A stretch of 64,000 nucleotides of DNA from the sequence record PX393110.1; one strand, written 5' to 3'. The DNA comes from a phage. A program made the translations under genes and the position numbers. Positions 1,711-63,620 of the stretch are shown piece after piece (position 1 is the first letter of the stretch; each line of letters starts with the position of its first letter). The notes under the pieces were generated by a model. That model was not told where the DNA came from and did no database searches. It was given only the letters and a program-made list of their open reading frames with translations.

Positions 1711-1742
1711 TTTAACAGCCTTTGGAGGGCTCAAAGGAGCGG
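1711..1742 (-). promoter_or_regulatory. Conserved promoter-like motif, copy 1 (TTTAACAGCC...AAAGGAGCGG on plus strand)
   Basis: About 35 nt upstream of the topoisomerase ATG at 1675; on the minus strand reads TGTTAAACT, an extended -10-like element. Confidence 0.5.
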
Positions 1743-1994
1743 TTCTGGAAGAGCGTACCAACCAGACAGCTCAAAGAACTCATCCAGAGTTCCATTAAAG
1801 AAGGAGTCCAACTCCTTAGCCATTTCCCTGGCGAAGCGACCAGATTCGGTCGACATAACCACACGAGCTTCCTTCATGGGCTCCTTAACCACTTCGTACT
1901 GATCCTGGTTAGGGTAATATACAATGGCGCATTTCAGGTTTACCGACATAACCACCACCGTATTGAATTTAGTGACTTCGAGAAGCTTAACCAT
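1731..1994 (-). CDS. hypothetical protein (87 aa)
   Basis: ORF track; co-oriented with neighbours, abuts the next ORF; no recognisable motif. Confidence 0.4.
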   Translation of the reverse strand: MVKLLEVTKFNTVVVMSVNLKCAIVYYPNQDQYEVVKEPMKEARVVMSTESGRFAREMAKELDSFFNGTLDEFFELSGWYALPEPLL

Positions 1995-2236
1995 TATGCA
2001 GCTTCCCCTGTGACTTTCAGGAACTCGGCCACTTCTTCTGCATCAAATTTGCAGGAAAACTTAGCGCATTCCATAACCGCTTCGAACAGGGTATTGAAGC
2101 TGGAGTCATAACCACCGATTTGGCTAGAGAAGTGAACATTGAACTTTGTATCGAGGCCTGGGGTGTGCTGAATTTCAGCAGAGTTAGCGATTGCAACCAG
2201 AACAGCACCACCACGTGAACTTTTGATTATAGCCAT
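1994..2236 (-). CDS. hypothetical protein (80 aa)
   Basis: ORF track; co-oriented; start/stop overlap with the downstream ORF at 1994. Confidence 0.4.
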   Translation of the reverse strand: MAIIKSSRGGAVLVAIANSAEIQHTPGLDTKFNVHFSSQIGGYDSSFNTLFEAVMECAKFSCKFDAEEVAEFLKVTGEAA

Positions 2237-2354
2237 GATTTTATCCCAAATTAGAAGAGCCGCAGCGGGAACGCCCCGCCACCCAAAAGAACGGGCTTAA
2301 AGACGGCTCATAAATCGTTTTATTTTTCATTATTTGAAAAATAAAATAATCTAC

Positions 2355-2378
2355 ACAAAAATGGGGTCCGAAGACCCC
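2355..2378 (-). terminator. Rho-independent terminator (GGGGTC-loop-GACCCC with T-run on minus strand)
   Basis: Perfect 6-bp GC-rich stem 2363-2368/2373-2378 with a 4-nt loop, followed on the minus strand by ATTTTTG; lies directly 3' of the 921-aa gene. Confidence 0.6.
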
Positions 2379-2384
2379 ATCTAA

Positions 2385-5150
2385 CTACTCTTCCATAAAC
2401 GTAGTTACGTTATTGGAAAGGTAGGCACCGATTTTAGTATTATATCTCTGGAACGTAGGTACATGAGTAACCAGGATGATGTGATTAACCGGAATGTCCT
2501 GGAGAGCATCGATAGCTATGTCCAGAGTATTCACATCCAGATTCTTCAACGACTCATCCAGAATCAGGCATCCAGCACCTTTACTAAGGCTAATCAGCTT
2601 ACCGATGAACAGTACGTCCACCAGGTTCTGCTGACCACCAGAGAGATCAGAATACGGAATCAGGAACTCACCGACTTTGTATTGAACATCAAAGTCAATC
2701 TTGATATTTCCATTAGCCTGTTCACGAACGGTAGAGATGACCATATCACCACCAGTCATCATCGCAGCCACTTCCTTAAAGATAGAAGCAGTTACGTCAC
2801 CGCTATTAGTGAACAGATTCTGATACTCCACCAGCTTCTGATACTTAGGCTGAAGAGTAGCCAGCTCAGAGTTAGCCTTATCCAGCTTCGTCTGAGCATC
2901 GTCCATACGAGACTTAAGACTACGAAGAGTAGCCATAGCTCCGATAGTGGAGTTAATCTCGATAAGCTCTTGTTCCAGCTTAGCGACTTCCTCTTCCAGA
3001 ACTTGCACGGAGGAATAGGACTTAGTCTTATTCTTAAGCACTTCCACATCGCTATTGACGGTATGAATCTTCTGGCGAAGAGTGGCCACATCGTTTAGCA
3101 GACCGGACTTACGACGGAGTTCGACTAATTCGTTATTCTTAAGAGCCAGCTTCTGTCGGATTTCATCAGACTTAGGAGCCTTACTTATCTCAGCTTCCAC
3201 AGCATCCAACTTAGACACAGATACAGATCCCTGTGTCTCGAGCTCATCCATCTTACTTCTGATAGAGCTCTGTACCTGCTTAATGTCCTCTTCCTTAAGA
3301 GACTGTTTACAGGTAGGACAGGTAGTGGGAATATTCCGCATTTCTGTCTCTAACTTAGTCAACTCCTGTTCCAGACGAGTCAACTCCTTAGTTAGAGATT
3401 CGCTCTGGTTATGGAGCGAACGAATATTCCCTTCTACTTCCGACACTTCGGCATCTAGCAGAGTAATTTCGCCACGGACATTAGCGAGTGCGGAGTTAAC
3501 CTCTTCTTCGCTAAAGTCTATATTGAACGCAGCCAGCGAGTCTTCCAACATCTGAAGACTCTGTAGCTTACTATCCAAATTACCCAGCTCCCGGATCTTC
3601 TGACGAATATCATCAATCTGAGGAAGGATTCGGGATTTAGCCTCTTCCAGATCACTTACGTCCTTGAGTCTGGAGAAATCGTGATCCTCCATCGTCTTAA
3701 GGACTTCTTCCTGAGCAGTAACCTGAGTCTGGAGATTACCGATCTCTACCTTACAGTTCTTAGCCGAGGCCTTTGCGACAGCTTCGTACTGGTTAATTAC
3801 GGTAAGACCAAGCATCTTCGTTATCAGGTTGATACGCTCGTTGAATCCGAACTGGCTAAGGAACGGAGGACTGTTCTGGGAGCGGTACAGAAGATCGAAG
3901 TGTTCGAGGAATGGCAGCATCTCCCAGAGCTTAGCTTCACGCTCACGAATACTTCCGCCATCCATCTCATCGCCATCAATCCAGACTCGGAACGTCTGAC
4001 CACCAGCCCAATGGCGACTGATCAGGAATTCACGACCACCATACTCCAGCATCACTTCTACCAGAAGATGGTCCTGACCGAGTCTCACCACGTTACGAGG
4101 ACTGTCGCTACCAGTTAAGCAGTAGTTCAGAGCTCGTAACAGCGAGGATTTACCATTACCGGTTTCGCCGTAGAGATAAGTCAGACCTTTCTTAAAGTCC
4201 AGCTCCAACTTATCGATGCTACGGAAGTTCTCTACCTTAATGCTATTTAAGGTAAAGTTGAGGTCGAATACCGACTCGGAACGATCAACGTGGGTAGACA
4301 TCTCATCATGGATATCTTTAAGACCTTTAGCCCGAACGACTTTATCGATAACTTCTTCGACATCAATAGACTTAACCGAGATGCGTGAAGCATCCATCAT
4401 CTGAGCTCGTTCACGAACTACCAGATGTGGGTAATTGTCCAATCCGACAGGAACCTCATCTTCCCAGTACATCTTTAAGTACTTAAAGGAATCAGACTCT
4501 ACCGGAACCCGCTGCCAGGAAAGATCTTTGAGATCCAGCAGTACCAGACTGCCTTCCTGACTATCACCCATCCCATGAGGAATAGGCACGTTCACCGAGT
4601 GAGTATGACCGATGCTGATAGGACGGTGGATGTCACCCGCAAATCCCAGATCGTACTTAGTATCGTCGAACTCCTGACCGAACATCGAGGACAGGGTAAT
4701 ATGGCCGATTAGGACATCTACTTTATCCTGGATGAAGCTAAAGTCCTGAGTCGGACGCCAGTCGCTGAAGGCGACCTTACGGCCACCTAAGTTCAGGATC
4801 TTACCATCGACATACTCCGCCTTACCAGCCAGGATCGGCACCAGCGAGTTCTGATAGTGATCAGCATCTACCGATTTGGAGTTAATGTCGTGGTTACCCA
4901 GAATGTAGTAAATCTCGGAGAACTGCTCACCGAGGATGTCCATAAACTGGGAAGTAGCATGTGCAATCTTAGGCTCGTGCTGAGCCTTATGCACCAAGTC
5001 GCCAGCGATAGATAGGCAAGTAACTTTATGTTCCTTACCCATCTCCACCATACGATGAGCCAATCTGATAAACTGCTTTAGCCGAAACCCTTCCGAGTTA
5101 TGTTGCTGAAACTCATGAATATGAATATCAGCAGCAATTAACATTTTCAT
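2385..5150 (-). CDS. Fused Mre11/SbcD-like nuclease and Rad50/SbcC-like ATPase (single 921-aa polypeptide)
   Basis: N-terminal calcineurin-like phosphoesterase motifs (DIHIHE, GDLVH, GNHD, GDIHRP, GHTH); then Walker A GETGNGKSS, a long heptad-rich region with a CPTC zinc-hook, ABC signature LSGGQQ, Walker B CLILDE and H-loop VTHV. RBS GGAG before the ATG at 5150. Confidence 0.75.
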   Translation of the reverse strand: MKMLIAADIHIHEFQQHNSEGFRLKQFIRLAHRMVEMGKEHKVTCLSIAGDLVHKAQHEPKIAHATSQFMDILGEQFSEIYYILGNHDINSKSVDADHYQNSLVPILAGKAEYVDGKILNLGGRKVAFSDWRPTQDFSFIQDKVDVLIGHITLSSMFGQEFDDTKYDLGFAGDIHRPISIGHTHSVNVPIPHGMGDSQEGSLVLLDLKDLSWQRVPVESDSFKYLKMYWEDEVPVGLDNYPHLVVRERAQMMDASRISVKSIDVEEVIDKVVRAKGLKDIHDEMSTHVDRSESVFDLNFTLNSIKVENFRSIDKLELDFKKGLTYLYGETGNGKSSLLRALNYCLTGSDSPRNVVRLGQDHLLVEVMLEYGGREFLISRHWAGGQTFRVWIDGDEMDGGSIREREAKLWEMLPFLEHFDLLYRSQNSPPFLSQFGFNERINLITKMLGLTVINQYEAVAKASAKNCKVEIGNLQTQVTAQEEVLKTMEDHDFSRLKDVSDLEEAKSRILPQIDDIRQKIRELGNLDSKLQSLQMLEDSLAAFNIDFSEEEVNSALANVRGEITLLDAEVSEVEGNIRSLHNQSESLTKELTRLEQELTKLETEMRNIPTTCPTCKQSLKEEDIKQVQSSIRSKMDELETQGSVSVSKLDAVEAEISKAPKSDEIRQKLALKNNELVELRRKSGLLNDVATLRQKIHTVNSDVEVLKNKTKSYSSVQVLEEEVAKLEQELIEINSTIGAMATLRSLKSRMDDAQTKLDKANSELATLQPKYQKLVEYQNLFTNSGDVTASIFKEVAAMMTGGDMVISTVREQANGNIKIDFDVQYKVGEFLIPYSDLSGGQQNLVDVLFIGKLISLSKGAGCLILDESLKNLDVNTLDIAIDALQDIPVNHIILVTHVPTFQRYNTKIGAYLSNNVTTFMEE

Positions 5151-6004
5151 GCCGACTCCAGTATCTTAGCCGTAACGCATCTGTTGTACTTACCCAGTAC
5201 ACCATGGAAATACGGAGGAAATCTGTGACCTGGACAGAACTCTTCCAGAGTCGGTAAGATACGCTGTTGCATCTGTACCTTAGACTCCTGCTCCTTAATG
5301 ATGTTGTGGACTTCGGTATCAGTCAGAATCCTGTCGAGTCGCATTAGCTCCATATTGGAACGAACACGGAACTCTACCGATTGGCTTAGCGAACCATCTT
5401 TGTAAGCGTTAATCGCTTCCTTAACAGTCTTCAAGCCAGTAGCCACTCCTGGAATGTTGTCGGAGCCGTCCCCGACGATGGCTTTGTAGATGAGGTAATC
5501 CTTATGATCATCCAGATCGTAGGTCTTCATCAACCAGGGAAGATCTACTAAACCATCATCCGGATTCAGGACACAAGTATTCTCATTAATGGATAAGTAC
5601 CAGTCTCGGTCTCGTGAGTGTAACATGACCGGACGACCAGAATGAGCATAGTAGTAGCCTAAATCATCGGCTTCCACACCAGACACCTGGATACATTTAA
5701 TACCCAGCGACGGGAAGATCTGCTCGTGAAGAACATTCATAGCAGCCCACAATGCTTCGAAACTCTCGTCGTACTCACGATTGGCCTTATACTCTGGATT
5801 CTTATCCTTAGGTCTGTATCGCCACTTACCCCGATCGTACAGCATGATTAGTTCGGAGCTATATCCGTCTTCCTTAATCAACTTCGCTACACTACCGATA
5901 GTAGAGGCGACTGTAGGACCTAAATCCTGAGACTTACCGGCTGCGAACCAGTTACGAAGCGTCAACCACTGACAATCGACTGGTATTAACGGTATATCAT
6001 TCAT
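5147..6004 (-). CDS. 5'-3' exonuclease / flap endonuclease (RNase H-like, FEN family)
   Basis: GVEADDLGYY and GDGSDNIPGV motifs typical of Pol I-type 5' nucleases (T4 RNase H / T5 D15 class). Confidence 0.75.
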   Translation of the reverse strand: MNDIPLIPVDCQWLTLRNWFAAGKSQDLGPTVASTIGSVAKLIKEDGYSSELIMLYDRGKWRYRPKDKNPEYKANREYDESFEALWAAMNVLHEQIFPSLGIKCIQVSGVEADDLGYYYAHSGRPVMLHSRDRDWYLSINENTCVLNPDDGLVDLPWLMKTYDLDDHKDYLIYKAIVGDGSDNIPGVATGLKTVKEAINAYKDGSLSQSVEFRVRSNMELMRLDRILTDTEVHNIIKEQESKVQMQQRILPTLEEFCPGHRFPPYFHGVLGKYNRCVTAKILESA

Positions 6005-6020
6005 AGTCTACCTAGAGCGT

Positions 6021-6047
6021 CAAAAATAAAGGGACCGAAGTCCCTTT
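6021..6047 (-). terminator. Rho-independent terminator (AAAGGGAC-loop-GTCCCTTT)
   Basis: Hairpin 6028-6047 with a 4-nt loop; T-run on the minus strand; directly 3' of the 6061-7095 gene. Confidence 0.6.
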
Positions 6048-6060
6048 ATTAGTTAATTAA

Positions 6061-7095
6061 TTATTTACGGAATTTGGCGAAGCGAGAGGCAGCACCACCT
6101 TCTTCTTTGTCTTCGTCAGACTTATCGTCGCCGGCATCTTCAGTTTTATCTTCAGATTTGGCGTCAGATTTGTCGTCAGCAGCGTCTTCTTTAGACTCGC
6201 CTTTATCTTCAGACTTATCTTCGGCAGAGCTCGCGTCGGACTTAACATCAGACTTAGCGTCAGATTTGTCGTCGGCTTTCTGATCACCGGACTCTTCCTT
6301 AGATTCTTCGGCCTTAGCCTCTTCTTCAGCTTTAAGCTCTTCGAAGCCATCTTCGCCAACCAGCGGCAGACCTTTAGCCTTACGCTGGGAACGAATTTCG
6401 TCCAGATCTTTACGGACACGCTTGACCAGACCTACGTATTTGTCTTTGTCGAAGCCTTCACGGATGTACGCCTGAGCCAGCGGCTGGTAGGTCTGATCTG
6501 CAACTACCGGATCAGCTTTGCTGAACAGCGGAGTGAAGGTTACAGAACCCTGATTACCACGTACTACGGTAATCTTAACCGGAGAGCCTTTGATGTCTTT
6601 ATCCAGCATACCTTCCAGAACTTCCGGAGAGTCTTCCGCCAGCGCCGTAATGAAGTCGGTCAGTGCGTTAGCCACCTTACCGTTACCGATCACCGCATAC
6701 AGAGTATTCGGCTTCCAGTTATCAGACGGAGTGTCGGTTTTCTGCAGGAAGAAGTAGAACAGGATGTTGTACTTCAGACCGTATTTCCAGTGATTGTATT
6801 CGTTCAGCTCGTCGAGCATGTCATCCAGCTCGGCATAGTTGAAGTTTTCCGGCAGATCTTCACAGTCGGACGGAGTCTGAATACCATAGCTGAAGTAACC
6901 GTGAGTACGGACTTCACGATACAGGTTACCGACGGGGTCAGTTATGATACGACCCTGATGGCTACCTTCCGGAAGGAAAGTCGCGTTAGGGAAGTTACCG
7001 GTACCACCGGATTTCTCTTTACGCTCTTTCATTTTACCTGCGAGGGCTTTGATACCAGCTACGTCTAACTTCTTAACTTGAACTTGTTCAGTCAT
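6061..7095 (-). CDS. Putative ssDNA-binding protein with a long acidic K/D/S/E low-complexity C-terminal tail
   Basis: 344 aa; position between nuclease and helicase genes; C-terminal 90 aa is a repetitive KSD/KSE acidic tract like SSB tails. No zinc-binding motif seen, so function is inferred. Confidence 0.35.
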   Translation of the reverse strand: MTEQVQVKKLDVAGIKALAGKMKERKEKSGGTGNFPNATFLPEGSHQGRIITDPVGNLYREVRTHGYFSYGIQTPSDCEDLPENFNYAELDDMLDELNEYNHWKYGLKYNILFYFFLQKTDTPSDNWKPNTLYAVIGNGKVANALTDFITALAEDSPEVLEGMLDKDIKGSPVKITVVRGNQGSVTFTPLFSKADPVVADQTYQPLAQAYIREGFDKDKYVGLVKRVRKDLDEIRSQRKAKGLPLVGEDGFEELKAEEEAKAEESKEESGDQKADDKSDAKSDVKSDASSAEDKSEDKGESKEDAADDKSDAKSEDKTEDAGDDKSDEDKEEGGAASRFAKFRK

Positions 7096-7154
7096 CTTTG
7101 TGATCTCTATTTAAACAATGTTTTAACAATCTTAATCAGAGTTGCCCTCTGACA

Positions 7155-7187
7155 CCTTAACAGCCTTTCGACCCTCCAAAAGAGCGG
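7155..7187 (-). promoter_or_regulatory. Conserved promoter-like motif, copy 2
   Basis: CCTTAACAGCCTTTCGA...AAAAGAGCGG; intergenic, about 60 nt upstream of the ATG at 7095. Confidence 0.5.
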
Positions 7188-7191
7188 CGGA

Positions 7192-8232
7192 CTACACCTT
7201 ACGCAGTCGGTCTATCATTTTAGCCCGATGCTGCTCTTCTGTATTGATGATCGAGTACATACGAACCAATACTGACGGATCATTATCTACTCGGTTGGCT
7301 AACTTATCCAGAGCACCTAAGTAGATACTGGTCTCTTCCTTGATTACCTTACGAACTGAGTCAGCAAAGGTAAATCCAATACTGTCTGGGTTGAACGTAA
7401 TACCGTCCAGCATCACAGCCAGCATCACATTGTCCTGGAAGATGTCCGATTTAATAGAATCCAGTACACTATTCTTGCGGACTGTTTCCAATATCGAGAC
7501 GACCTTAGACACCTTCGGGAACCCTTTCCGGCCATTCAGTAGTTCCAGGAAGGTAAAGAATTTGCCTATGTCTTTGATAGATGTAAGCAGCAGGAATAGT
7601 TCAGGATGGTGCTCTGCCAGAATCGACAGGAACATCATCTTCTCTGTATTCGTCTTAGGAATCAGATCCTGTATCGCTTTAATATCTACGTCGGTCACGA
7701 TTGCTCCCATATGTTCGAGTATACGAGTCACGATGATCCTGTCTGTCAGATCAAGATGCTCGACCATAACCACTCCCCAGTCTAAATATAGCTGGATGAT
7801 AGGTTTGAATCGGTTAGGGAGGAACTGATTCCAAAGATTAACATAGCGATGGACAGCCACTTCCTGTCTAACGCTGTAACTATTGCCTAACTCCAGAGCC
7901 TTGTAAAAATCTGAGTTCTCGGCTAATTCGGGTTCTAGCATGTCGATCGATACTTGCTTTACTTCTTTCTTAATTATCGACTCGAGATGATCCCGTGTAA
8001 CTTCTTCTGTGGTAGTGAGCAGCATGTAGGTTAAGCTGGTCACTGCAGAAGATAATGCCTCTTCGGTCTGTCCTCTGAATTTATAATAGGTACACACCCG
8101 TCGGACTATGGCTAGTGATAAGGTGAATAGGGTACGAGAATCCCTCTTCACAGAATTGATCTCCCTATTCACCAATTCAACTAGCTTTTCGACGGTAGCG
8201 TTCTCGAGGATCTCTACCATCTCTTTTATCAT
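7192..8232 (-). CDS. hypothetical protein (346 aa), replication-module context
   Basis: ORF track; RBS GGAAGA; no diagnostic motif recognised. Confidence 0.5.
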   Translation of the reverse strand: MIKEMVEILENATVEKLVELVNREINSVKRDSRTLFTLSLAIVRRVCTYYKFRGQTEEALSSAVTSLTYMLLTTTEEVTRDHLESIIKKEVKQVSIDMLEPELAENSDFYKALELGNSYSVRQEVAVHRYVNLWNQFLPNRFKPIIQLYLDWGVVMVEHLDLTDRIIVTRILEHMGAIVTDVDIKAIQDLIPKTNTEKMMFLSILAEHHPELFLLLTSIKDIGKFFTFLELLNGRKGFPKVSKVVSILETVRKNSVLDSIKSDIFQDNVMLAVMLDGITFNPDSIGFTFADSVRKVIKEETSIYLGALDKLANRVDNDPSVLVRMYSIINTEEQHRAKMIDRLRKV

Positions 8233-8456
8233 TTAAATATCTTCCTCAGACCAGCATCCGGATCACCCTCATCCACGAAATCCTGCTTAATGCTAACTGC
8301 ATCGTTGATAGATATTTTGAACTCCTCGTCGGAAACACGAGTAATAGTTCCGTATTTACTCTCTATGGAGTTGCCTGGACTTATGGAACTCAGCACCATA
8401 AATACCATGGCTTCGTTGGGTAGGGTACCTACGATATCGGACAGCTTTACACTCAT
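8229..8456 (-). CDS. hypothetical protein (75 aa)
   Basis: ORF track; overlaps downstream gene by 4 nt; N-terminus MSVKLSDIVG resembles the N-terminus of the helicase at 11818. Confidence 0.4.
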   Translation of the reverse strand: MSVKLSDIVGTLPNEAMVFMVLSSISPGNSIESKYGTITRVSDEEFKISINDAVSIKQDFVDEGDPDAGLRKIFK

Positions 8457-8459
8457 ACA

Positions 8460-8909
8460 TTACCCCATACTTGATAAAGAGATAGACTTTTCGTCTAGTT
8501 CGCATACCTCCGTGATTAAAATCAGGTATTCGTAATTATCTTTATCATTGATTAGTTTATCCATATTCAAGGTGATCGTGAATCGATCATCTATGCTAAT
8601 AGCTTCCTTGACCGCATCTTCCACTGCTTTAATCAGGTTAGATACATCGCGAGTCCAGAATGATTGGCTGAACGAGAATATCATGCGGATATTCAACATC
8701 ACGGACTTACCTTTATATGGCAGAAATGCTTCTCTAGCTCCCTGCATATCTAAGGAGGATTTCACCCACTCCTTAAAGTCCTTGATGCTAGGGTCGAGAT
8801 AGACCCACGATCTTCCTCCACGAGCCCTCCCGACTTTATACATTTCGTTCACGGAGGGGAAATTCCCTCCGTATTGCAGAATGTAGTTATGAGTTCCTAA
8901 TACTTCCAT
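8460..8909 (-). CDS. Possible RusA-like Holliday junction resolvase
   Basis: 149 aa; NEMYK and RDVSNLIKAVEDAVKEA...IDDRF segments resemble RusA catalytic-region motifs, but the D-x-D is D-x-S here. Strong RBS GGAGGAA. Confidence 0.4.
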   Translation of the reverse strand: MEVLGTHNYILQYGGNFPSVNEMYKVGRARGGRSWVYLDPSIKDFKEWVKSSLDMQGAREAFLPYKGKSVMLNIRMIFSFSQSFWTRDVSNLIKAVEDAVKEAISIDDRFTITLNMDKLINDKDNYEYLILITEVCELDEKSISLSSMG

Positions 8910-10168
8910 TAGTTCCTCCGACCACCTCTGCCACCATAAGTCTGTAGGCGAGAATACACATCACGAGTAATCTGTTCGATTTCACCATGAGCTCTCATGA
9001 TCCAAGGTGAGCTAATTCCGTCCTTACCACGACGGCACTTAGCCACTTTAAGAATACCGCAGTGCTTCTCACTACGAGGACTCAGACCGACCGTAACCAT
9101 CATATCTACGTTCTGCTGCTTACGAGCAGATTCACCAGCAGAATCGATATTCAGTTCTTCCTCTCCCCAGTATTGAATCTTAGGCTGAGAGGCAACGAAC
9201 ACCAGGCGAGCAGGTTCGTAGATAGGTTTAGCTATGGAAGTCAGGATGTCATAGATATGACCACCATCGTCATACATACTTCCTGTTTCCGGACGCTTAA
9301 GGTTGGAGTCATAGTCCACTACCAGACAGTCGTAGCGCTTCTTACCTCGACAACTATCCAGGTATTCTTCCAGATCTTCAGCACCGAGACTACGAGAAGG
9401 CACTGTAATCAGGTCGATATAGTTCAGGATCTCACGAACGTCGTCGGTAAGGTGTTTATTCAGTTCGGCGACAACCTTAGCATAAGGAGTACCGGTGATC
9501 ACCGCCGTAGCACGAGATAAGAAGTCGTAGCGAGTTAAGTCGCCAAGAGCTACCCATAAAGTGCGACGACCCTGTGTAGCGAATCCGAGGACTTCCTGTA
9601 GCATGATAGCAGATTTACCACCACCAGGACGACCTACGAACTGAATTACCTGACCAGGAATATAGCCATTAAATACCGAGGCTTCAGTAACCACATCCAG
9701 AGTAGACTGGAATACGCCATCTAAGCCACCGATGTCATGTTCCATTACAGTATCTACATCCAGACCACCCAGAGTATGTACCGGAATAGTCGAAGTCAGA
9801 CTACGTGGAATATCACGAATCAGATCAATCAACATACCGGTATCTTCGGAGTTAGCTTTCATGATCTCTGTCAGTTTACGCTCCTGATAGAATCGGAAGA
9901 AGTTATTCACAATCTTCTCAATTTCTTTAGGATCGTTAACCAGACGGAAATTCTCGGCCAACTCAACAAAGTTAGATATGTCCTCTGCAGGACATACCTC
10001 ACCAAGTATCGAGTGAATTACAGCTGGGGTGGCATCCTGTAACTTAATACCGGACTCCACGAGGGTTCTTGCAATCTCAGTAGACCAGGGAAGATCATTA
10101 ATCGTGAGTCCCATAGACTCTTTGATCTTAGGGTTAAACAAACTTGCTACGTGTGTGATCTCTGACAT
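8909..10168 (-). CDS. DnaB-like replicative DNA helicase
   Basis: Walker A GRPGGGKSAIML, Walker B-like CLVVDYDSNL, RecA-fold C-terminal domain. Confidence 0.7.
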   Translation of the reverse strand: MSEITHVASLFNPKIKESMGLTINDLPWSTEIARTLVESGIKLQDATPAVIHSILGEVCPAEDISNFVELAENFRLVNDPKEIEKIVNNFFRFYQERKLTEIMKANSEDTGMLIDLIRDIPRSLTSTIPVHTLGGLDVDTVMEHDIGGLDGVFQSTLDVVTEASVFNGYIPGQVIQFVGRPGGGKSAIMLQEVLGFATQGRRTLWVALGDLTRYDFLSRATAVITGTPYAKVVAELNKHLTDDVREILNYIDLITVPSRSLGAEDLEEYLDSCRGKKRYDCLVVDYDSNLKRPETGSMYDDGGHIYDILTSIAKPIYEPARLVFVASQPKIQYWGEEELNIDSAGESARKQQNVDMMVTVGLSPRSEKHCGILKVAKCRRGKDGISSPWIMRAHGEIEQITRDVYSRLQTYGGRGGRRN

Positions 10169-10177
10169 TTCTATGTC

Positions 10178-11818
10178 CTATTTGCGAAATGATACCTTAG
10201 TGTGACTGATTACTTTCAGTCTACTTTTAATAGTTTCCATCTTGGACTTCATCTGCTTATTCAGCATATAATTATGCTTATCGAAGAAGAGTCCTACCTT
10301 AACCGCATCACCACGAGCCGAACGACCGATAGTCTGGATTACGCTCTTGTATGACTTGCCAGTTAAGGGTATAATAGAATCTAAGTTAGGGATGTCGATC
10401 CCTTCGGTACCAACGGAAGTAGTGATCAGCACTTTGAATGCTAAATCCTCAGCCAGTTCCTTGAGCTCGTCAAGTCCTAACCCTTCCGCTTCGCCTACAG
10501 GTGTCCAAACTACCGAACTCGAGAAGAATACAGTATCGATACCGATAGCATTCAGATTTCTAGCCATCTGAACACCATCTTCGACCTGAACCATCGGGAT
10601 ATAGGTTATACCTTTACCACCGAATACTTCATTATAAGTTCGTTTAATAGCCTCAGCAGTCATCATGCTACCCATATGCAGGTACAAACTACCTAACATA
10701 TACTCGGGTCGCTCTTTCTGATACTTGGCAATAACAGATCTGTCTTCTGACATCTCAACTAATATTTCGGTTAACTCTACCGGAACAGGTAGGTCATGCT
10801 CGATAATAGATGGTCCACAGTATGCTAATACCGCCATCCCCTTACTCGAAGCACCAAACTTAAATCCCTCGACGAGTAAACTGACGCCCTCCAGAGAATC
10901 CCCAGTGGCCGTAGTTCCCCAGATATACTCGGGATCGATAAGTTCTGTAAGTCTCTGCCAACCAGATGCAGAGAAGTGGTGAGCCTCGTCGGCTATAATA
11001 CAGTTAACCTGATTAAAGAACTCGGAGTACTCACCTTTCTTGTACTTATTGGTTCTCTGGAGTCCCGCCGGATTAATAACGTTAATCGGACTATTTACAT
11101 CCAGATCCCACGGAATAGTTACCCCGTACTTAGCAGCACGTAGAATAATCTCTTCCTTAACTCGGTTAGCGAAAGTATAGATCAACACTTTCTCTGTCAG
11201 ACCCGCTTCCAGTACAGACTCAGCAGTACCGATCAGCAGTTCTGTTTTACCAGCACCCGTATATAACCCGATGATCCCGAACTTAGAGTGACAGATAGCA
11301 TCTGCCGCACTCATCTGAATCTTACCCTTTTCAGGCTTAGGGTGATTTTCGAATACATCCAGCCATTTACGACTGAACTCGAATGCTGGCTCTTCCAGAC
11401 TATTATCGAACTGGGTAGGATCATCAGACGTAGCTATCGCAGTAGCACCAGGAATTACCTGAGCTCCTGAGTTGATCAGCTGATATAACATCTGACCTAC
11501 ACCGAGCTGGCAATTAACTTCACCAGCAAATAGACTCGTATATTTAATCTCTTTACGAGTCGGGAACATCCGTTTCATTCTCCAGTTATATTCCATCACA
11601 TCTTCGATGGCTGTGGAGAACATATGAATCTGTTTCAGTGCTTCCTGATCGTCAGCTGTGATCTTGCACAACATCCGAGACTCACGAGTAAAGTGTATAG
11701 TATACTCTTTACCAGCCGACTCGTTCTGAATCTTGGCTAATTCCATACGAATGGCTTTAGACACATCCGGATTTACCTTAGCCTTCTTCCCTACAAGATC
11801 CTCTAGCTTTACAGACAT
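10178..11818 (-). CDS. SF2 DEAH-box helicase (UvsW-like)
   Basis: Motif I GAGKTE, motif II IIADEAHH, motif III TTATG, motif V TTSVGTEGIDIP, motif VI QTIGRSARG; RBS AAGAGGAG. Confidence 0.75.
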   Translation of the reverse strand: MSVKLEDLVGKKAKVNPDVSKAIRMELAKIQNESAGKEYTIHFTRESRMLCKITADDQEALKQIHMFSTAIEDVMEYNWRMKRMFPTRKEIKYTSLFAGEVNCQLGVGQMLYQLINSGAQVIPGATAIATSDDPTQFDNSLEEPAFEFSRKWLDVFENHPKPEKGKIQMSAADAICHSKFGIIGLYTGAGKTELLIGTAESVLEAGLTEKVLIYTFANRVKEEIILRAAKYGVTIPWDLDVNSPINVINPAGLQRTNKYKKGEYSEFFNQVNCIIADEAHHFSASGWQRLTELIDPEYIWGTTATGDSLEGVSLLVEGFKFGASSKGMAVLAYCGPSIIEHDLPVPVELTEILVEMSEDRSVIAKYQKERPEYMLGSLYLHMGSMMTAEAIKRTYNEVFGGKGITYIPMVQVEDGVQMARNLNAIGIDTVFFSSSVVWTPVGEAEGLGLDELKELAEDLAFKVLITTSVGTEGIDIPNLDSIIPLTGKSYKSVIQTIGRSARGDAVKVGLFFDKHNYMLNKQMKSKMETIKSRLKVISHTKVSFRK

Positions 11819-11820
11819 AA

Positions 11821-12339
11821 TTACTCCTCTTTACTCTGGTAAAGTAACTGGACATCTGCCGCATTCTCGACATATTCCTGAGCTATACGAATAGCCCTAA
11901 CGACCATAGCCTTCTCTCCCCAGCTTAAGAACTCAGGAGTAGCGGCCATCTTAACGATCAACTCACGAGACAGATCTTCGATACACTTAATCTTGTTCGA
12001 GACCTTAGGAAACGCGAGTCTGTTATTGATGGTGATACGATCAGCAGGAATCTGGGTGAAGGTCTCGCCGAACAGTCTATCGAAATCTCCGATGTCGAGT
12101 TCAGTGAAGTAACCCTTACCTTCTTCCGTATCAAATATCCCATGAACTACTACGTTCTGTCGGATAGACACATTTAGTAAGTACTTAGAGTTCAGTAAGA
12201 TAACGTAGATACTCGAATAGCTTCGGAGATCACGTTTCCATGCTGATAACGACTCAGTAGGTGAGCCTTTGTATTCTACTCCCGAATTAAGAAGCATCTT
12301 AGCAAATGGGTCTAGGCTGTTAATTACTACAGTACTCAT
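11821..12339 (-). CDS. hypothetical protein (start refined to the ATG at 12339)
   Basis: Track ORF begins at a GTG at 12360, which would abut the promoter-like motif; the in-frame ATG at 12339 has an AAGGAG RBS 7 nt upstream. Confidence 0.45.
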   Translation of the reverse strand: MSTVVINSLDPFAKMLLNSGVEYKGSPTESLSAWKRDLRSYSSIYVILLNSKYLLNVSIRQNVVVHGIFDTEEGKGYFTELDIGDFDRLFGETFTQIPADRITINNRLAFPKVSNKIKCIEDLSRELIVKMAATPEFLSWGEKAMVVRAIRIAQEYVENAADVQLLYQSKEE

Positions 12340-12362
12340 TGTATTCTCCTTGGGTGCCACAG

Positions 12363-12395
12363 TTTAACAGCCTTTCGACGCTAATTAAAGGTGGT
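12363..12395 (-). promoter_or_regulatory. Conserved promoter-like motif, copy 3 (upstream half degenerate)
   Basis: TTTAACAGCCTTTCGA conserved; the AAAAGAGCGG half is replaced by AAAGGTGG. Confidence 0.4.
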
Positions 12396-12696
12396 CTTTA
12401 ACAGTTCCCAGAATATTATCTCTGGTATGGATTACGCCACTACGATTGGCTTCAATACGTGTGGTAGCTACTATTTCAAATACTTCTAATTGGATAGTAG
12501 GATGAATCATGCAAGTACGGATCAACATAGACAGAGCATCTTCGTAGCTCTGATAACCAGTCGCGTTCTTGTGATTATCCTGCCAAAGTCTATCTGTCGC
12601 CTGAGCTCGCTCCGAGATGTAAGAGATCTTACCATCTTTCATCTGACCAACACAATACTTAGCTTCAGAACTATCTGAAATATGTAACGTTTCCAT
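12385..12696 (-). CDS. hypothetical protein (103 aa)
   Basis: ORF track; co-oriented. Confidence 0.4.
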   Translation of the reverse strand: METLHISDSSEAKYCVGQMKDGKISYISERAQATDRLWQDNHKNATGYQSYEDALSMLIRTCMIHPTIQLEVFEIVATTRIEANRSGVIHTRDNILGTVKDHL

Positions 12697-12739
12697 AATT
12701 TCTCCTAATGGGGAGTTTTACCTCCCCTGAGTAAACATA

Positions 12740-12988
12740 TTAGAATGGGCGGTGACGAGATTCCGTTACCTGAAGACCTTCGAAGATCTTACCAACGAAG
12801 TCAAAGCTTACACCATCTTCTACCGATGTAATCTTGACACTATTGGTATCATCGATCTTCTGACCAGTCGCCAGGAGGCCGTTGGGGAGGACTACGCCTA
12901 CGAATTCACGAGTATCAGGTGGTCTACGGAAGTGTTTCTTCCCAGCAGGTTTCTTGTGTCTCGAGAACGGATTATTATTATAAGGCAT
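12740..12988 (-). CDS. hypothetical protein (82 aa, basic N-terminus)
   Basis: ORF track; co-oriented. Confidence 0.35.
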   Translation of the reverse strand: MPYNNNPFSRHKKPAGKKHFRRPPDTREFVGVVLPNGLLATGQKIDDTNSVKITSVEDGVSFDFVGKIFEGLQVTESRHRPF

Positions 12989-13349
12989 TGTCTAGCTCCT
13001 CTTTTATAGTATGATCTTTGTACATTCTTAAACTATACGGGTTCTCTATCTCTTCGAATTGAAGACCATCGAATCCATGTATCATGTTAGCGAATCGCAT
13101 ATTATACATGGTAATCCTGATCTGCCAAATCATAGAATTAGAGGCTTTACGGAATACTTTACACGGCTCACTAACTACAGCACCCTGGATCTTCTTTAGC
13201 TCGTTAACGATGTTCGACACATCTTCAAGTTCGCAATATGACTGAAAGATCCGTGATGGACATCGTCTTATTTGACTAACGTCTGAACCATACATAATTT
13301 TTACACAACGAGTAGATTGAACACAGAAGGACGTTGGATACGCCTCCAC
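12978..13349 (-). CDS. hypothetical protein (start uncertain)
   Basis: ORF track; the GTG start abuts the promoter-like motif, and an internal ATG at 13295 lacks a clear RBS. Confidence 0.3.
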   Translation of the reverse strand: MEAYPTSFCVQSTRCVKIMYGSDVSQIRRCPSRIFQSYCELEDVSNIVNELKKIQGAVVSEPCKVFRKASNSMIWQIRITMYNMRFANMIHGFDGLQFEEIENPYSLRMYKDHTIKEELDNAL

Positions 13350-13352
13350 CGC

Positions 13353-13383
13353 TTTAACAGCCTTTTAGGTCATTAAAACGGCG
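13353..13383 (-). promoter_or_regulatory. Conserved promoter-like motif, copy 4
   Basis: TTTAACAGCCTTTTAGG...AAAACGGCGG. Confidence 0.45.
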
Positions 13384-13392
13384 GAGTTCAGA

Positions 13393-14184: not shown

Positions 14185-14817
14185 AGTTACCTCTATGTTA
14201 TTTATTTTAAACTGGATAGGGACCTAATAGAGTAAATTAGTAAATAAATACTTATTAGTTACCTCTTACCTATGCTAAGGGAAGCGTACTCGAGGAGTAC
14301 AGAGGCTTAGCGAAAGAGCGGAGTAACACCTTTATCCCAATTAGTCAAAGTAGAGAGCGAAGGAGTCGCGCCCGCTTGAGGCGGCGCGACCTCCGCTTCA
14401 CCAATCCTACCGGATGAGCGCCTGCGACCACCCGAGCCTACCCCTGCATCACTCTCTAAAGCCACTTCGGGCTTTACCTCGTTCTGCTACGCGATACGCA
14501 GGCGATAGCTACACTAAGTCCCCTGGAGATGGCTAGTAAGCATCCGCTACCAGTCATATCCAACCTAACATTGGCGAAGCCAGGGACTAGGCACTCCGCG
14601 CCAATAAGCTACATTAGGATTTATGTCCGTATTCGAAGATAGGCCGATCGGTGAGACTATGCATTCATCTCTGCTCAACCAGGAAGCGCCGATTAGGGTA
14701 AATACCCAAACTACCTTCTTAATGTCACTCCTCCCAGACCGCTTCGGGACTTAGCTTAAGTCATATCCGAATAATCTGGCATCTACGACGGACCGTAGTG
14801 TATGGAGCGTACTGCAA

Positions 14818-15457: not shown

Positions 15458-15473
15458 AAATCCTCCATTTTAG

Positions 15474-15541: not shown

Positions 15542-15547
15542 ATAAAA

Positions 15548-58884: not shown

Positions 58885-58890
58885 ATAAAT

Positions 58891-58925
58891 GGGACTCACT
58901 CGTGATAGAGTGAGTCCCATTTTTG
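58891..58925. terminator. Bidirectional rho-independent terminator at the convergent junction
   Basis: 11-bp stem GGGACTCACTC / GAGTGAGTCCC with a 7-nt loop; TTTTT on the plus side and an A-rich run on the other side. Confidence 0.7.
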
Positions 58926-58936
58926 TGTAGATTAAT

Positions 58937-60513: not shown

Positions 60514-61137
60514 TTAGAAACGATCGCGACCTATGATTGGTGCGACTGGTTTAAAGTCAGTCTGGTCGTAACCTTTGTAAAGGTCGTAGCCACCACCAGC
60601 AACCTCAGTAAAGTAAATCTGACCGATGCGCATGTTAGAACGCAGTCGGATAGTGTTAGGGCTTAGGTTAACAATCTCTAGAGTAAATGCTCCCTTGAAT
60701 CCAAAGTCCCCGAAACCTGCACTGACATGGCTCAGTATTCCCAGACGACCCATAGTGCTGCGACCGTCGTAATGCTGACAGAATGCCACACCACGGTCTA
60801 CAGTGCTGTTACGGTATCGTGGGTCATAATGCTCGAACCACTTCTCAGGCAACATGGTAGTACAGTCGATACGTTCAGATGCTGAGCCTAAGATGAACTC
60901 CCCAGGTTTAAGATCGTAGTATAGTGCCTCTACCTCGCGATACTCCGGAAGAGTACATGGTTTATAGGGATCTACTACATGGCCATCAGGCATCTTTTGA
61001 GGAACCAGGAAGAACGGAGCTAAGCGTACATCTACACTATTCTGTCCGATTCGTGGTTCCTGATTGTCCAGATAACTGTGATAGGTCCATAATCCTTGAG
61101 TAATTGCCTGCTCAATATAAGATTTACCAAGGATCAT
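60514..61137 (-). CDS. dcd: dCTP deaminase family protein
   Basis: VDVRLAP and GRSTMGRLGILSHVSAGFGDFGFKGAFTLEIVNLS align with the dCTP deaminase/dUTPase-fold signature. Confidence 0.65.
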   Translation of the reverse strand: MILGKSYIEQAITQGLWTYHSYLDNQEPRIGQNSVDVRLAPFFLVPQKMPDGHVVDPYKPCTLPEYREVEALYYDLKPGEFILGSASERIDCTTMLPEKWFEHYDPRYRNSTVDRGVAFCQHYDGRSTMGRLGILSHVSAGFGDFGFKGAFTLEIVNLSPNTIRLRSNMRIGQIYFTEVAGGGYDLYKGYDQTDFKPVAPIIGRDRF

Positions 61138-61422: not shown

Positions 61423-61893
61423 TTACTTAATCCCGGAATGGCCAAACCCACCGTCGCCACGTTCAGAAACATCAGAGAATTTATCCACAAGCTGGAGCTC
61501 TGGATGGATAACGGGAAGAAACACCATTTGAGCGATACGGTCGCCGTGGTTAATAACGAAAGATTCGTTACTACGGTTCCACACAGACACCATCAGTTCT
61601 CCTTGATAGCCGGAGTCGATAAGACCAACCAAGTTACCCAGTACGATGCCATTTTTATGGCCGAGGCCGCTGCGGGGAAGAATCACAGAAGCGATGTTCG
61701 GATCGCCGATGTTGATCGCTAGACCGGTAGGGACCAGGATAGTTTCGCCAGGATTTACAGCGATTTTATCGATTTCGTCAGTCTTAATCATCGCACGAAG
61801 ATCAAGACCAGCATCACCAGCTTTAGCGTATTTCGGTAACTCCAGAGAGTCGTCCCAGTTAATAGTTTTCTTTACTTGAACTACGGTCATCAT
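61423..61893 (-). CDS. dut: dUTPase (deoxyuridine 5'-triphosphate nucleotidohydrolase)
   Basis: Canonical motifs [30 protein letters not shown] and C-terminal [10 protein letters not shown]. Confidence 0.9.
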
Positions 61894-62270
61894 GATGCCC
61901 TTTTGTACTGTTTAATGAATGCTGCGCAGATGCTGGTGAAGAGGTGATCTTTGACTCGATGCTCTTCCGGCAACCGTGAATATGGAACCATACACGGGTG
62001 CGTCTTAGCTGCGAGATCTTTGATTTCTCCATACTTCCAGCCCTGCTCCTTTTTAGTTTTAACCCAGAATTCATGGGACTCTTCTGGGCTGATACGGTTA
62101 TTGTGTAAGCAGTTATACGCTCCATCAATAGCCGACTGTTTTATTTCATCGGATGTTGCTTCCCAGCTTAATTGGGTGAAGTCTCCGATAGAATGGCAGT
62201 ATGCACGATTAGCTTCGTGACACACCTTAGCCACCATCAATACGATTTCTTCTCGGGTCATATGAGACAT
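61890..62270 (-). CDS. hypothetical protein (126 aa)
   Basis: ORF track; ATGA overlaps on both sides. Confidence 0.45.
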
Positions 62271-62494: not shown

Positions 62495-62514
62495 AGAGAT
62501 TTCCTTTCCAACAG

Positions 62515-62546
62515 TTTAACAGCCTTTGGAGGCTACGAAAGAGCGG
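62515..62546 (-). promoter_or_regulatory. Conserved promoter-like motif, copy 11
   Basis: TTTAACAGCCTTTGGAGGCTACGAAAGAGCGG; its -10-like element lies about 25 nt upstream of the ATG at 62494. Confidence 0.5.
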
Positions 62547-62856
62547 AATCTTCGTCAGGTAATGAATTAACGAAGTCAGCTATAACTTGAGCATGACATG
62601 GTAACGGTAAGCAGGAGCACCCTAAAGTCTTACCCTTAAGAGTCCGTAAGTAGGAGATGCTTATGTGGCCATCTTTTACTTGCTGGTGGAACCATAGTCT
62701 GTATTTCGCGATGGCTAATGTTCGGGAACCTACGTTAATAGCGTTAGGTAAATCTTTATGGCTCCACTTATTCCCGAATATAGTACCTCTCCCAACATAT
62801 AAATCGTAGTTAGGATTGGTACGTATATTAACCACCCGACAAAGCTTACTCTCCAT
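62533..62856 (-). CDS. Possible DUF4326-like protein (start uncertain: ATG 62856 or TTG 62883)
   Basis: YDLYVGRG...GNKW...LGCSCLPLPCHAQVI pattern recalled from DUF4326-type phage proteins; the 3' end overlaps promoter-like motif copy 11. Confidence 0.3.
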   Translation of the reverse strand: MESKLCRVVNIRTNPNYDLYVGRGTIFGNKWSHKDLPNAINVGSRTLAIAKYRLWFHQQVKDGHISISYLRTLKGKTLGCSCLPLPCHAQVIADFVNSLPDEDSALS

Positions 62857-63559
62857 CTTCCACAGAGTTACCCTGCATAGCAATCATGGTATTCACCTCG
62901 TGCTCCAGATCCTGTAACTCTTTTACACGATTGATGGTGCGAACCCAAGTCTTAGCTTCCAGCATCGCATCGAACAATGCATGGTGATCAGACATAGACT
63001 CGTGCTGGCTACTCAGTTCTTCTTTAATCATGCGACGATCATCGAATGAGATCAGCTGCAGACTAGCCAGAGTGCGGTAATCTCGATTCATCCAGTGTAG
63101 GAACGGGGTCTTACGTCCTTTAGCCTTAAAGTACCAATCCAGGAATCCCTGGTCGAACTCTGGTGCGTTACCGATGAAGTTCAACATCTGGCAACCAGGA
63201 TCCTGTAGTACCTTAGCTACGTACTCTTCGATGATATCCAGAGCTTCGTCAACAGATACTGGATTAGCATATGCAGCATCACGGACGGGTTTCGGGAGAG
63301 TGTTGAGCCATTCAACTACGTTAGGGTCAGACTTCATACCCAGAGCCAGCGACTCTTCTCGATCAATAGTGAAGTAGACGTGGGAGTAGTGATCAGGACC
63401 AACCGTCACCATACCTACAGATAGAACTACCCCAGGCTCTTTAAAATCGAGATACTCGGTCTCGATGTCAATTGCGCAGTGGTAGGAGTCGTGATATGAC
63501 AGGAATCGGTTAAACAGTTTATTCGGAGCCAGATGGTGTGGCATCATCTTAGTAGACAT
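62846..63559 (-). CDS. DEDDh-type 3'-5' exonuclease (DnaQ/RNase T-like)
   Basis: Exo I motif AIDIETE near the N-terminus and Exo III-type HHALFDA near the C-terminus; RBS AAGGATAA. Confidence 0.55.
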   Translation of the reverse strand: MSTKMMPHHLAPNKLFNRFLSYHDSYHCAIDIETEYLDFKEPGVVLSVGMVTVGPDHYSHVYFTIDREESLALGMKSDPNVVEWLNTLPKPVRDAAYANPVSVDEALDIIEEYVAKVLQDPGCQMLNFIGNAPEFDQGFLDWYFKAKGRKTPFLHWMNRDYRTLASLQLISFDDRRMIKEELSSQHESMSDHHALFDAMLEAKTWVRTINRVKELQDLEHEVNTMIAMQGNSVEDGE

Positions 63560-63588
63560 CGGTTATCCTTATCAGTTGAGGTGCAACA

Positions 63589-63620
63589 ATTTAACAGCCT
63601 TTCGAGGGTAAGAAACGGCG
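63589..63620 (-). promoter_or_regulatory. Conserved promoter-like motif, copy 12
   Basis: TTTAACAGCCTTTCGAGGGTAAGAAACGGCGG, about 30 nt upstream of the ATG at 63559. Confidence 0.5.

Follow-up and report, generated by a model that had tools for sequence, protein, structure and literature searches.

A conserved 40-nucleotide intergenic element as a candidate phage-specific promoter in Escherichia phages that encode a bacterial-like RNA polymerase beta' subunit

The 64,000-nucleotide (nt) stretch of phage DNA from record PX393110.1, hereafter the window, carries twelve copies of a 40-nt intergenic element, here termed class 1, all of them on the minus strand. Judging from its sequence, placement and conservation, the element is very probably a promoter, and we lean towards a phage-specific promoter class that is read by a polymerase containing a phage-encoded beta' subunit together with a sigma-like specificity factor. 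It would drive the minus-strand non-structural genes, namely those for replication, recombination, nucleotide metabolism and DNA modification, as well as tRNAs and non-coding RNA. Initiation would occur near motif positions 36–41, at a conserved GA, and the two conserved boxes of the element would be contacted by the specificity factor on the phage-beta'-containing polymerase. The recognition determinant would be carried by the phage lineage rather than lie in the host sigma-70 consensus, and the template DNA would probably contain hypermodified thymines.

The element provides a precise and testable handle on transcription in a poorly studied clade, which comprises Escherichia phages vB_EcoM_IME392 (IME392) and EP_H11, Acinetobacter phage Ab1-TPeters, Ralstonia phage RP13, Vibrio phage 1.031.O and, more distantly, YerA41. 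In this clade, probable thymidine hypermodification goes together with a catalytically intact, bacterial-like beta' encoded by the phage and no detectable beta subunit. Questions thus open to experiment include which polymerase reads the motif, whether beta' assembles with host subunits and whether modified thymines form part of the signal. If a dedicated factor were found, the motif could be of use as an orthogonal promoter part.

Sequence and conservation of the class-1 element

Aligned without gaps in the sense of the minus-strand genes, the twelve copies yielded the consensus CCGCTCTTTTG-N5-TC(G/C)AAAGGCTGTTAAA-n-TGT-nnG-A, in short form CCGCTCTTTTG-N5-TCGAAAGGCTGTTAAA-nTGT-nnGA, which holds ~48 bits of information. 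The element is bipartite, with box I (CCGCTCTTTT) followed ~16 nt downstream by box II (TC(G/C)AAAGGCTGTTAAA), and then by TGT and the conserved GA. Its GC content is ~50%, and the spacing between the boxes is fixed in the coliphages. Position 35 is an invariant G, and position 40 is A in all twelve window sites and in 44 of the 50 unique sites pooled from the window, IME392 and EP_H11.

A position weight matrix (PWM) was built from the twelve window sites, with 50 shuffled windows as control. The sites scored 41–63 bits, compared with 8.6 bits for the best match in the shuffled windows. The sole extra match in the window, at 12 bits on the plus strand (16054), is the partly palindromic upstream half of the site at 16042–16081 read in reverse. 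The string TTTAACAGCC, with up to one mismatch, occurs 18 times in the window against 2.95 expected. Half-string search, alignment and PWM agreed with the first-pass annotation of this DNA in finding twelve copies in a single orientation. Ten of the positions it had listed were exact and two were off by one (7156, not 7155; 63590, not 63589), and the conserved unit proved longer than the ~32 bp assigned to it.

The window is ~90% identical in its non-structural part and ~96% in its structural part to IME392 (116 kb) and EP_H11 (111 kb). No other close relative was found in a set of 50,697 phage records. Scanning the window and these relatives with the PWM, a check that the first-pass annotation had proposed, gave 12 sites in the window and, at a threshold of at least 27 bits, 25 in IME392 and 24 in EP_H11, all of the latter two sets co-oriented with the ~75-kb non-structural block. 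As that annotation had stated for the window, no copy lies in the plus-strand structural block, and this holds for IME392 and EP_H11 as well. In EP_H11, 43 intergenic gaps measure 35 nt or more and are either internal to the non-structural block or adjoin it, the divergent junction included; the motif occupies 24 of these, and none of the seven gaps inside the structural block. Most of the EP_H11 copies end 11–76 nt ahead of an annotated start. A 46-nt consensus searched against the same 50,697 records matched IME392 and EP_H11 alone, at 16 and 12 places, respectively. In IMG/VR, scans with a 14-base core returned chance single matches and one double match that was a coding repeat, and were discarded; an 18-base bipartite pattern had no matches. 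The GenBank records of IME392 and EP_H11 carry no annotation of the motif at the matching places, and no paper on promoters or transcription in either phage was found in a literature search that did not cover the IME392 genome paper.

Selection on the element was assessed in an alignment of the twelve sites and the orthologous sites of IME392 and EP_H11. Identity was 94.7% in box I (positions 1–11) and 98.4% in box II (17–32), compared with 79% in the internal spacer (12–16), 83.5% over the 90 nt upstream and 86% over the first 30 nt downstream. Purifying selection therefore acts on two distinct boxes and not on the spacer or flanks, and conservation extends beyond the needs of sigma-70, as had been proposed.

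Placement in the window and promoter character

Several aspects of placement point to a promoter for the minus-strand genes, in keeping with the first-pass annotation. The sites are strictly co-oriented with these genes, and the signal is present at the 5' start of the minus-strand block, is absent from its 3' end and also precedes RNA genes, for which reasons it is best read as a promoter. The key site in favour of a promoter over a terminator is that at 18235–18274 (58.4 bits), within the 124-bp divergent junction, which precedes the first gene of the minus block (ATG at 18224) and has no co-oriented gene upstream. At the opposite end, the convergent junction at ~58.9 kb contains a bidirectional terminator and no class-1 motif. 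Since sites also head tRNA and non-coding stretches, the element is not a translation signal. In several sites, a stable hairpin or a Shine-Dalgarno sequence starts at positions 36–38, so transcription is unlikely to start much further downstream. The description of all sites as lying 15–60 nt upstream of a start codon with its ribosome-binding site applies in modified form to eight of the twelve, at 10–77 nt, and the other four sit in a stretch poor in open reading frames (ORFs). The label of "early genes" for those downstream found no support. Most of the genes behind the sites function in replication, recombination, nucleotide metabolism or DNA modification, and tRNAs are served as well.

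At the beginning of the window, the site at 1703–1742 (53.5 bits) leaves a 27-nt leader to an ATG at 1675, where a topoisomerase II subunit B-like gene begins that is cut off by the window start, and orthologous sites lie upstream of the topoisomerase B gene in IME392 and EP_H11. The site at 7148–7187 (56.0 bits), a 40-mer identical in both relatives, is 52 nt upstream of a 344-residue ORF (6061–7095), beyond which follow genes for a 5'-3' exonuclease and a fused SbcD-SbcC (Pfam). With a 15-nt leader to the ATG at 12339, the site at 12355–12394 (45.9 bits) heads an operon of a 172-residue ORF, two helicases and RusA. The lowest score (41.0 bits) belongs to 13345–13384, a CTAAAAGGC variant in which C replaces T at motif position 34 and which lies ~49 nt upstream of a 105-residue ORF according to the EP_H11 annotation. 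The highest (62.8 bits) belongs to 16889–16928, upstream of a 180-residue ORF (16269–16811), where a perfect 8-bp hairpin begins at motif position 36. Towards the end of the window, the site at 62507–62546 (60.5 bits) is separated by a 12-nt leader from the ATG at 62494 of an operon for a RyR-domain protein, dUTPase and dCTP deaminase (Pfam), and that at 63582–63621 (53.3 bits) by a 22-nt leader from the ATG at 63559 of a 3'-5' exoribonuclease-like gene (Pfam).

The four remaining sites lie in the ORF-poor region at 14.2–16.3 kb, which encompasses tRNA-Arg (15200–15276) and tRNA-Met (14979–15054), and apparently non-coding sequence. The site at 14810–14849 (48.5 bits) heads a 626-nt ORF-poor stretch (14185–14810), followed by a 263-residue ORF (13393–14184). 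The one at 16042–16081 (51.3 bits) is followed ~45 nt on by a terminator-like hairpin with T5 (~15995), and then by the tRNA-Arg and tRNA-Met region. The sites at 16282–16321 (51.4 bits) and 16224–16263 (60.9 bits) stand in tandem at a distance of 58 nt, the former upstream of the latter.

Related motifs in phages of other hosts

A tblastn search with the N-terminal half of the phage beta' found, among others, Ab1-TPeters (39% identity), RP13 (35%) and Vibrio phage 1.031.O (32%). Ab1-TPeters shares the genome architecture of the coliphages and has an intergenic motif of its own in two types, one reading CCTGT(C/T)TCTTAA-N9-AAACCTGTT-N4-TGT followed by a GC hairpin, and the other a short hairpin followed by TCAAAAGCTGTTTAAAGTGT; twelve copies occur in the gene sense and none in antisense, against 0.09 expected. 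In RP13, the motif ACGACKCTAT-N10-rACCTTGTaAG is found in 11 copies versus 1 in antisense (0.35 expected), and Vibrio phage 1.031.O has CTCTAAACCTTGCTnTTTGAAT and CCCCTTGCTGTTTGAATTGT. Two metagenomic relatives at intermediate distance keep box II (CTAAAAGGCTGTTAAnTTGTnnGA), with box I decayed to ..CTCTTT... Common to the lineages are an upstream CTCT box, a gap of 15–17 nt, the core AAAsC(T)TGT and then TGT, without a TATAAT-like part; the distance from CTCT to CTGT is 15–17 nt in three lineages. All the related motifs are co-oriented with non-structural genes, and in several cases (topoisomerase II, DNA polymerase, DNA ligase) the same gene is preceded by the motif in different lineages.

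The conservation of the motif across lineages, sometimes before the same genes, suggests that recognition is tied to the phage lineage and not to host sigma-70. In Ab1-TPeters, the pattern TGnTAnnnT is present in only four of twelve sites, and several sites lack the essential A at -11 (e.g. CTGTTTGGTTGT); the RP13 and Vibrio phage versions have no TAnnnT and retain AAAsCTGT..TGT. Because so few Ab1-TPeters sites fit, recognition in the clade as a whole probably does not depend on a sigma-70 -10 element. The occurrence of related motifs in phages of three other hosts that share the phage beta' gene backs the suggestion of a phage-encoded recognition determinant. The sigma-70 promoters annotated in the GenBank record of YerA41 were also considered as a further case, and were set aside as generic predictions with no shared motif in a phage too distant for the comparison.

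As a separate observation, Vibrio phage 1.031.O (locus L137, e.g. 5459–5659, 12198–12297, 30201–30290 and 35051–35130) contains recurrent, long, near-identical palindromic intergenic elements, ACCCGTAAACGCCCTAAC...GTTAGGGCGCTTTCGGGT. These are hairpins like repetitive extragenic palindromes, or terminators, and have no coliphage counterpart.

Polymerase, sigma-factor and DNA-modification genes

The beta' genes lie outside the window, at 26582–28096 and 29676–31244 in EP_H11 (locus L005) and at 16457–18025 and 19904–21418 in IME392. The two IME392 genes annotated as RNA polymerase beta and beta' encode the N- and C-terminal halves of one beta' (Rpb1 domains 1–2 and 3–5, respectively), so that the record mislabels one beta' half as beta; in Vibrio phage 1.031.O, beta' is unsplit. 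The N-terminal half matched Escherichia coli RpoC with E = 4e-51, and cellular beta' or gamma chains made up all 60 of the PDB matches listed. The halves share 31% identity with RpoC over its residues 20–514 and 27% over 570–990, and the zinc-binding Cys4, the NxDxDGD catalytic motif and the RxxNLLGKRVDYSGRS segment are all intact. By sequence, the phage subunit resembles cellular beta' far more than it does the subunits of AR9, phiKZ or other jumbo phages.

As a tblastn query, E. coli RpoB retrieved no similar sequence at E up to 10 from the window, EP_H11, IME392 or Ab1-TPeters, and a search of four phage genomes with it likewise gave no match at E below 0.5. Pfam detected no beta domain in the large unassigned proteins, including a 1188-residue Vibrio-phage protein. 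Vibrio phage 1.031.O encodes a sigma-70-family protein (Sigma70_r4, 2e-8; Sigma70_r2, 3e-4), whose regions 2 and 4 fit a bipartite promoter. By tblastn, RpoD retrieved no similar sequence from the coliphages, and RpoD and the Vibrio-phage sigma as queries found no sigma in the coliphages, Ab1-TPeters or the window. MotA and AsiA Pfam domains were absent from ~90 proteins of the window and EP_H11, a scan outside which many small ORFs of the relatives fall. Adjoining the beta' genes of EP_H11 and conserved in Ab1-TPeters are p483 and p251 (483 and 251 residues), which received no assignment by Pfam, PHROGs or PDB profile searches; the AlphaFold model of the p483 family was all-helical and of low confidence (predicted local distance difference test score, pLDDT, of 56), and a fold search with it gave no match. 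A single-subunit RNA polymerase was likewise not found among the proteins of at least 500 residues in the window and the EP_H11 non-structural block, which had other assignments or no RNA_pol match. In the structural block, a 1014-residue candidate for a single-subunit or virion polymerase was rejected as a DUF4815 baseplate protein.

Given an undetectable beta and a beta' well conserved with respect to bacteria, the simplest, if speculative, model is a hybrid enzyme with host beta, alpha and omega. The split phage beta' and an unrecognised specificity factor would replace host beta' and sigma on the host beta/alpha core and redirect it to the 40-bp promoters with their hypermodified thymines. 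We consider this specific scheme doubtful at present. If true, it would represent takeover of the host polymerase by core-subunit replacement, of which no description was found in the literature searched, along with a class 1/class 2 promoter code common to Escherichia, Acinetobacter, Ralstonia and Vibrio phages (class 2 is described below).

The gene set of the lineage further includes a 5-hydroxymethyldeoxyuridine (5-hydroxymethyl-dU) DNA kinase, glycosyltransferases, a PIG-L deacetylase, a thymidylate-synthase homologue, dCTP deaminase and dUTPase. The kinase (Pfam, 4e-35) is encoded at 12422–13393 in EP_H11, with a methyltransferase and a BCCT transporter also in the neighbourhood gene set, and dCTP deaminase and dUTPase are present within the window (60514–61137 and 61423–61893). 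From this thymidine-hypermodification gene set, the thymines of the phage DNA, those of the promoter included, are probably hypermodified. Thymine hypermodification in the lineage has also been predicted independently (bioRxiv 10.1101/2025.03.26.645540; PMC12686479).

A second promoter-like class

A second element, class 2, consists of an A/T-rich stretch, then AAAACGAnTTnTG-N8-tAAAGCCCGTTCTTTTGGGTGG and then a GC-rich hairpin (in short form, AAAGCCCGTTCTTTTGG plus a GC hairpin), and often occupies intergenic gaps without class 1. One copy is found in the window, on the minus strand at 2258–2345 (near 2295), with the A/T-rich stretch, AAAACGATTTATG-N-TTAAGCCCGTTCTTTTGGG and the GC hairpin; it is not among the twelve. 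Six are found in EP_H11 (2263, 25019, 25375, 28843, 33058 and 36556). Class 2 heads operons that hold the beta' halves and runs of small ORFs, and shares tc.AAAG.C.GTT with class 1. Counterparts are GTTAtTTTGG in RP13, GCGAGTTCTTTTGG in a metagenomic relative and AACCCCTTTCTTTTGTGG in Vibrio phage 1.031.O, each with a hairpin. Since class 2 separately heads the beta' operons, it could first drive beta' synthesis, with class 1 to follow, in a temporal cascade that would avoid a bootstrap problem.

Alternative explanations

The strongest competing explanation, to which we grant a real but minor probability, is that the sites are host sigma-70 extended -10 promoters (TGnTAAAnT, no -35), with box I and TCGAAAGGC bound by a phage activator or sigma-appropriation factor similar to T4 MotA/AsiA, or by the alpha C-terminal domain. 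In that case, the role of the phage beta' would be a different one, for example in late transcription or in reading modified DNA. The extended -10 core named in the first-pass annotation is indeed prevalent in the coliphages, where 44 of the 50 sites read TGnTAnnnT with a purine 6–7 nt downstream (positions 40–41), A is found at position 30 in 49 and T at 34 in 45, and box I is located where a MotA box would be, around -30 to -40. The host sigma-70 holoenzyme would plausibly suffice at such sites, which weighs against a phage-modified polymerase. So do the results of Pfam, PHROGs, tblastn and PDB profile searches, which revealed no sigma, MotA or AsiA homolog in the coliphage lineage, and the canonical hairpin-plus-U terminators of the genome, to which a host-like polymerase would respond. 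Further points against it are that beta was searched for by tblastn and Pfam, and that the association of motif and beta' is a correlation over four lineages. Against the sigma-70 explanation, the homologous motifs of the Acinetobacter, Ralstonia and Vibrio phages keep AAAsCTGT..TGT and not TAnnnT, so that the extended -10 description does not carry over from the coliphages to Ab1-TPeters, with its four fitting sites in twelve, or to the Ralstonia and Vibrio versions, which lack TAnnnT. In addition, C stands at the essential -7 in 5 of the 50 coliphage sites, which are conserved all the same, A is avoided at -8 (2 of 50), and the invariant AAAGGC in the spacer has no role with sigma-70. No MotA or AsiA domain was present in the proteins scanned, and the template thymines are probably hypermodified. 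We still prefer a phage-specific promoter read with the phage beta'.

The other explanations dispense with a minus-strand promoter. It is improbable that the element acts at the RNA level, as a processing site in a 5' untranslated region or between cistrons, or as a 3'-stabilising hairpin, with the dyad GCTCTTTTG...TCGAAAGGC folding in the transcript. This dyad in the upstream half forms an 8-pair helix with a bulge, in which 83.8% of cells pair, and its covariation of 0.124 versus 0.096 in shuffled sets (1 of 500) is weak, stemming from some double changes at two apical pairs. Its native folding energy of -5.0 kcal/mol is below the -3.5 kcal/mol of left-arm shuffles (0 of 300) and slightly below that of arm swaps (p ~0.03), and a short hairpin immediately precedes about half of the Ab1 type-A sites. 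However, the hairpin is a weak one, the opposite strand folds just as stably, six of the eight pairs, the basal ones, are near-invariant and therefore uninformative on pairing, the RP13 version lacks such complementarity, and no upstream transcript is expected at the site at the very start of the block. Moreover, Rfam gave no match at the motif (E up to 1), the two tRNAs being all that it matched in the window. The dyad may be without significance, or may reflect either a transient DNA hairpin or a symmetric contact with a protein. Reading the opposite strand, as an AR9-like promoter (AACA-N6-TA on the plus strand, via the template strand) for antisense or late transcripts or as a termination signal for a phage polymerase, is very unlikely. 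The plus strand does read TTTAACAGCCTTTCGA, with AACA-N6-TA in the CTAAAAGGC variant sites, and the site reported at 18243 faces the late operon; but most sites have AACA-N6-CG or AACA-N6-GG and not T then A/G, RNAs of that strand would be complementary to the messages of helicase, topoisomerase and polymerase genes, the plus block that would need such promoters holds no copy, none is found at the 3' end of the minus block, and the phage beta' is far closer to the cellular one than to the AR9 and phiKZ subunits. Least likely of all is a binding site for a non-transcriptional DNA protein engaged in site-directed thymine modification, replication or genome organisation. The thymidine-hypermodification gene set and a motif that is T-rich on one strand and has a dyad would be in line with it, but it leaves unexplained the intergenic placement 10–77 nt before starts, the co-orientation and the absence from the 40-kb structural block.

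Comparison with known promoter systems

T4 middle promoters combine a MotA box, (a/t)(a/t)(a/t)TGCTTtA centred at -30, with a sigma-70 -10 element, and depend on sigma appropriation by AsiA and MotA. Class 1 resembles them in having a phage-specific upstream box in place of the -35 and a TAnnnT-like -10, in serving replication and nucleotide-metabolism genes and in the modified pyrimidine of the phage DNA, predicted here. It differs in that box I, CCGCTCTTTT, is ~5 nt further upstream (about -40 to -31) and lacks TGCTTtA, in the extra invariant TCGAAAGGC in the spacer, in the lack of a detected MotA or AsiA homolog and in relatives that keep the motif and lose TAnnnT. In Bacillus phage SPO1, middle and late promoters in hydroxymethyluracil DNA are read with the phage sigma factors gp28 and gp33/34. 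Shared with SPO1 are a bipartite arrangement of phage-specific -35 and -10 boxes with a spacer of ~16–17 bp, thymine-replaced DNA (again predicted here), several promoter classes, which in SPO1 relate to timing, and the sigma-70-family protein of one relative, Vibrio phage 1.031.O. Unlike SPO1, the coliphages have no sigma homolog that could be found, the clade adds a beta' subunit and the consensus is unrelated.

Compared with extended -10 sigma-70 promoters (TGnTATAAT), class 1 has TGnTAAAnT, the downstream purine noted above and no -35 hexamer, but also ~25 conserved positions beyond these; what related phages keep is not the -10-like part, and the A preferred at -8 in such promoters is avoided in class 1. 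Like T7 and N4 promoters, the element occurs as near-identical, long, phage-specific copies before many genes, often with a 5' stem-loop, and its weak dyad recalls the hairpin promoters of N4. Unlike them, it is bipartite with a variable spacer, not a contiguous 23-mer, and no single-subunit polymerase gene was found among the large proteins. The dyad, at a mean of -5 kcal/mol and without strand specificity, also appears to differ from the 5–7-bp stem with a 3-nt loop of N4.

The jumbo phages phiKZ and AR9 possess multisubunit RNA polymerases that use ~10-nt AT-rich motifs, centred near -10 in early promoters, or, in AR9 late promoters, AACA-N6-TA on the template strand, and in AR9, promoter recognition is also tied to a modified pyrimidine (PMC7598289, PMC5449584). 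In common with these, the present phages have a bioinformatically detectable motif upstream of non-structural operons and beta'-like proteins. In contrast, class 1 is 40 nt long, bipartite and GC-balanced, with AACA on the opposite strand and the required T-A/G in a minority variant only. In jumbo phages, beta and beta' are split into highly diverged pieces that make up two complete sets, virion and non-virion, whereas the clade described here has one bacterial-like beta', no detectable beta and genomes of 110–170 kb. A phage-specific promoter consensus as such is well known and not surprising; the novelty lies in the family of sequences, its division into two classes, its persistence in phages of four host genera and its link to a polymerase gene set with beta' only, in phages whose thymines are probably hypermodified.

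Further features of the window

Within the ORF-poor region, the 626-nt stretch at 14185–14810 on the minus strand is devoid of a convincing ORF and of Rfam matches, and a 76-nt segment of it is 80% identical to a second non-coding stretch in EP_H11 (50833–51361); the two may be a pair of structured RNAs. Positions 15990–16081, on the same strand, delimit a candidate short RNA that would run from a class-1 site to the hairpin with T5, just upstream of the tRNA cluster. At the tandem pair (16224–16321), an RNA begun at the first site could pair GAGGCGAGCG with box I of the second (CGCCGCTC), followed by TTTT, and this terminator-like arrangement might attenuate or insulate. A general role of box I as the 3' arm of an intrinsic terminator was considered and dropped, as it is true only of this pair (16282/16224).

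The bidirectional hairpin terminator between the structural and non-structural blocks, at ~58890–58930, reads GGGACTCAC...GTGAGTCCC with flanking A and T runs, and cUUCGg tetraloops are found in several other terminators of the lineage (window ~2361 and ~6026). On the plus strand, at 25503–25583, the major capsid gene is followed by a strong intrinsic terminator (-19 kcal/mol) and then by a good sigma-70-like promoter, composed of TTGACA (25554–25559), an 18-nt spacer and TAAATT (25578–25583), upstream of a gene for a 236-residue protein at 25631. This promoter is a hint that some late genes may use host-type signals. Over window positions 1–20000, sigma-70-type -35/-10 pairs are not enriched (31 found versus 33.8 expected). 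A degenerate plus-strand copy of the class-1 core at 18288–18302 (AAAGAGTGTTAAAAT), which faces the first late gene, was evaluated as a late promoter and rejected; since it is not conserved in EP_H11 (GAAACTATTAAAAC), it is probably non-functional.

Unusual accessory genes of the window comprise those for the fused SbcD-SbcC (921 residues, metallophosphatase plus SMC/Rad50 zinc hook; 2385–5150), the RyR-domain protein (61890–62270) and a DUF4326 protein (62533–62883), and the relatives additionally carry NADAR and Acb1-like (anti-CBASS) genes.

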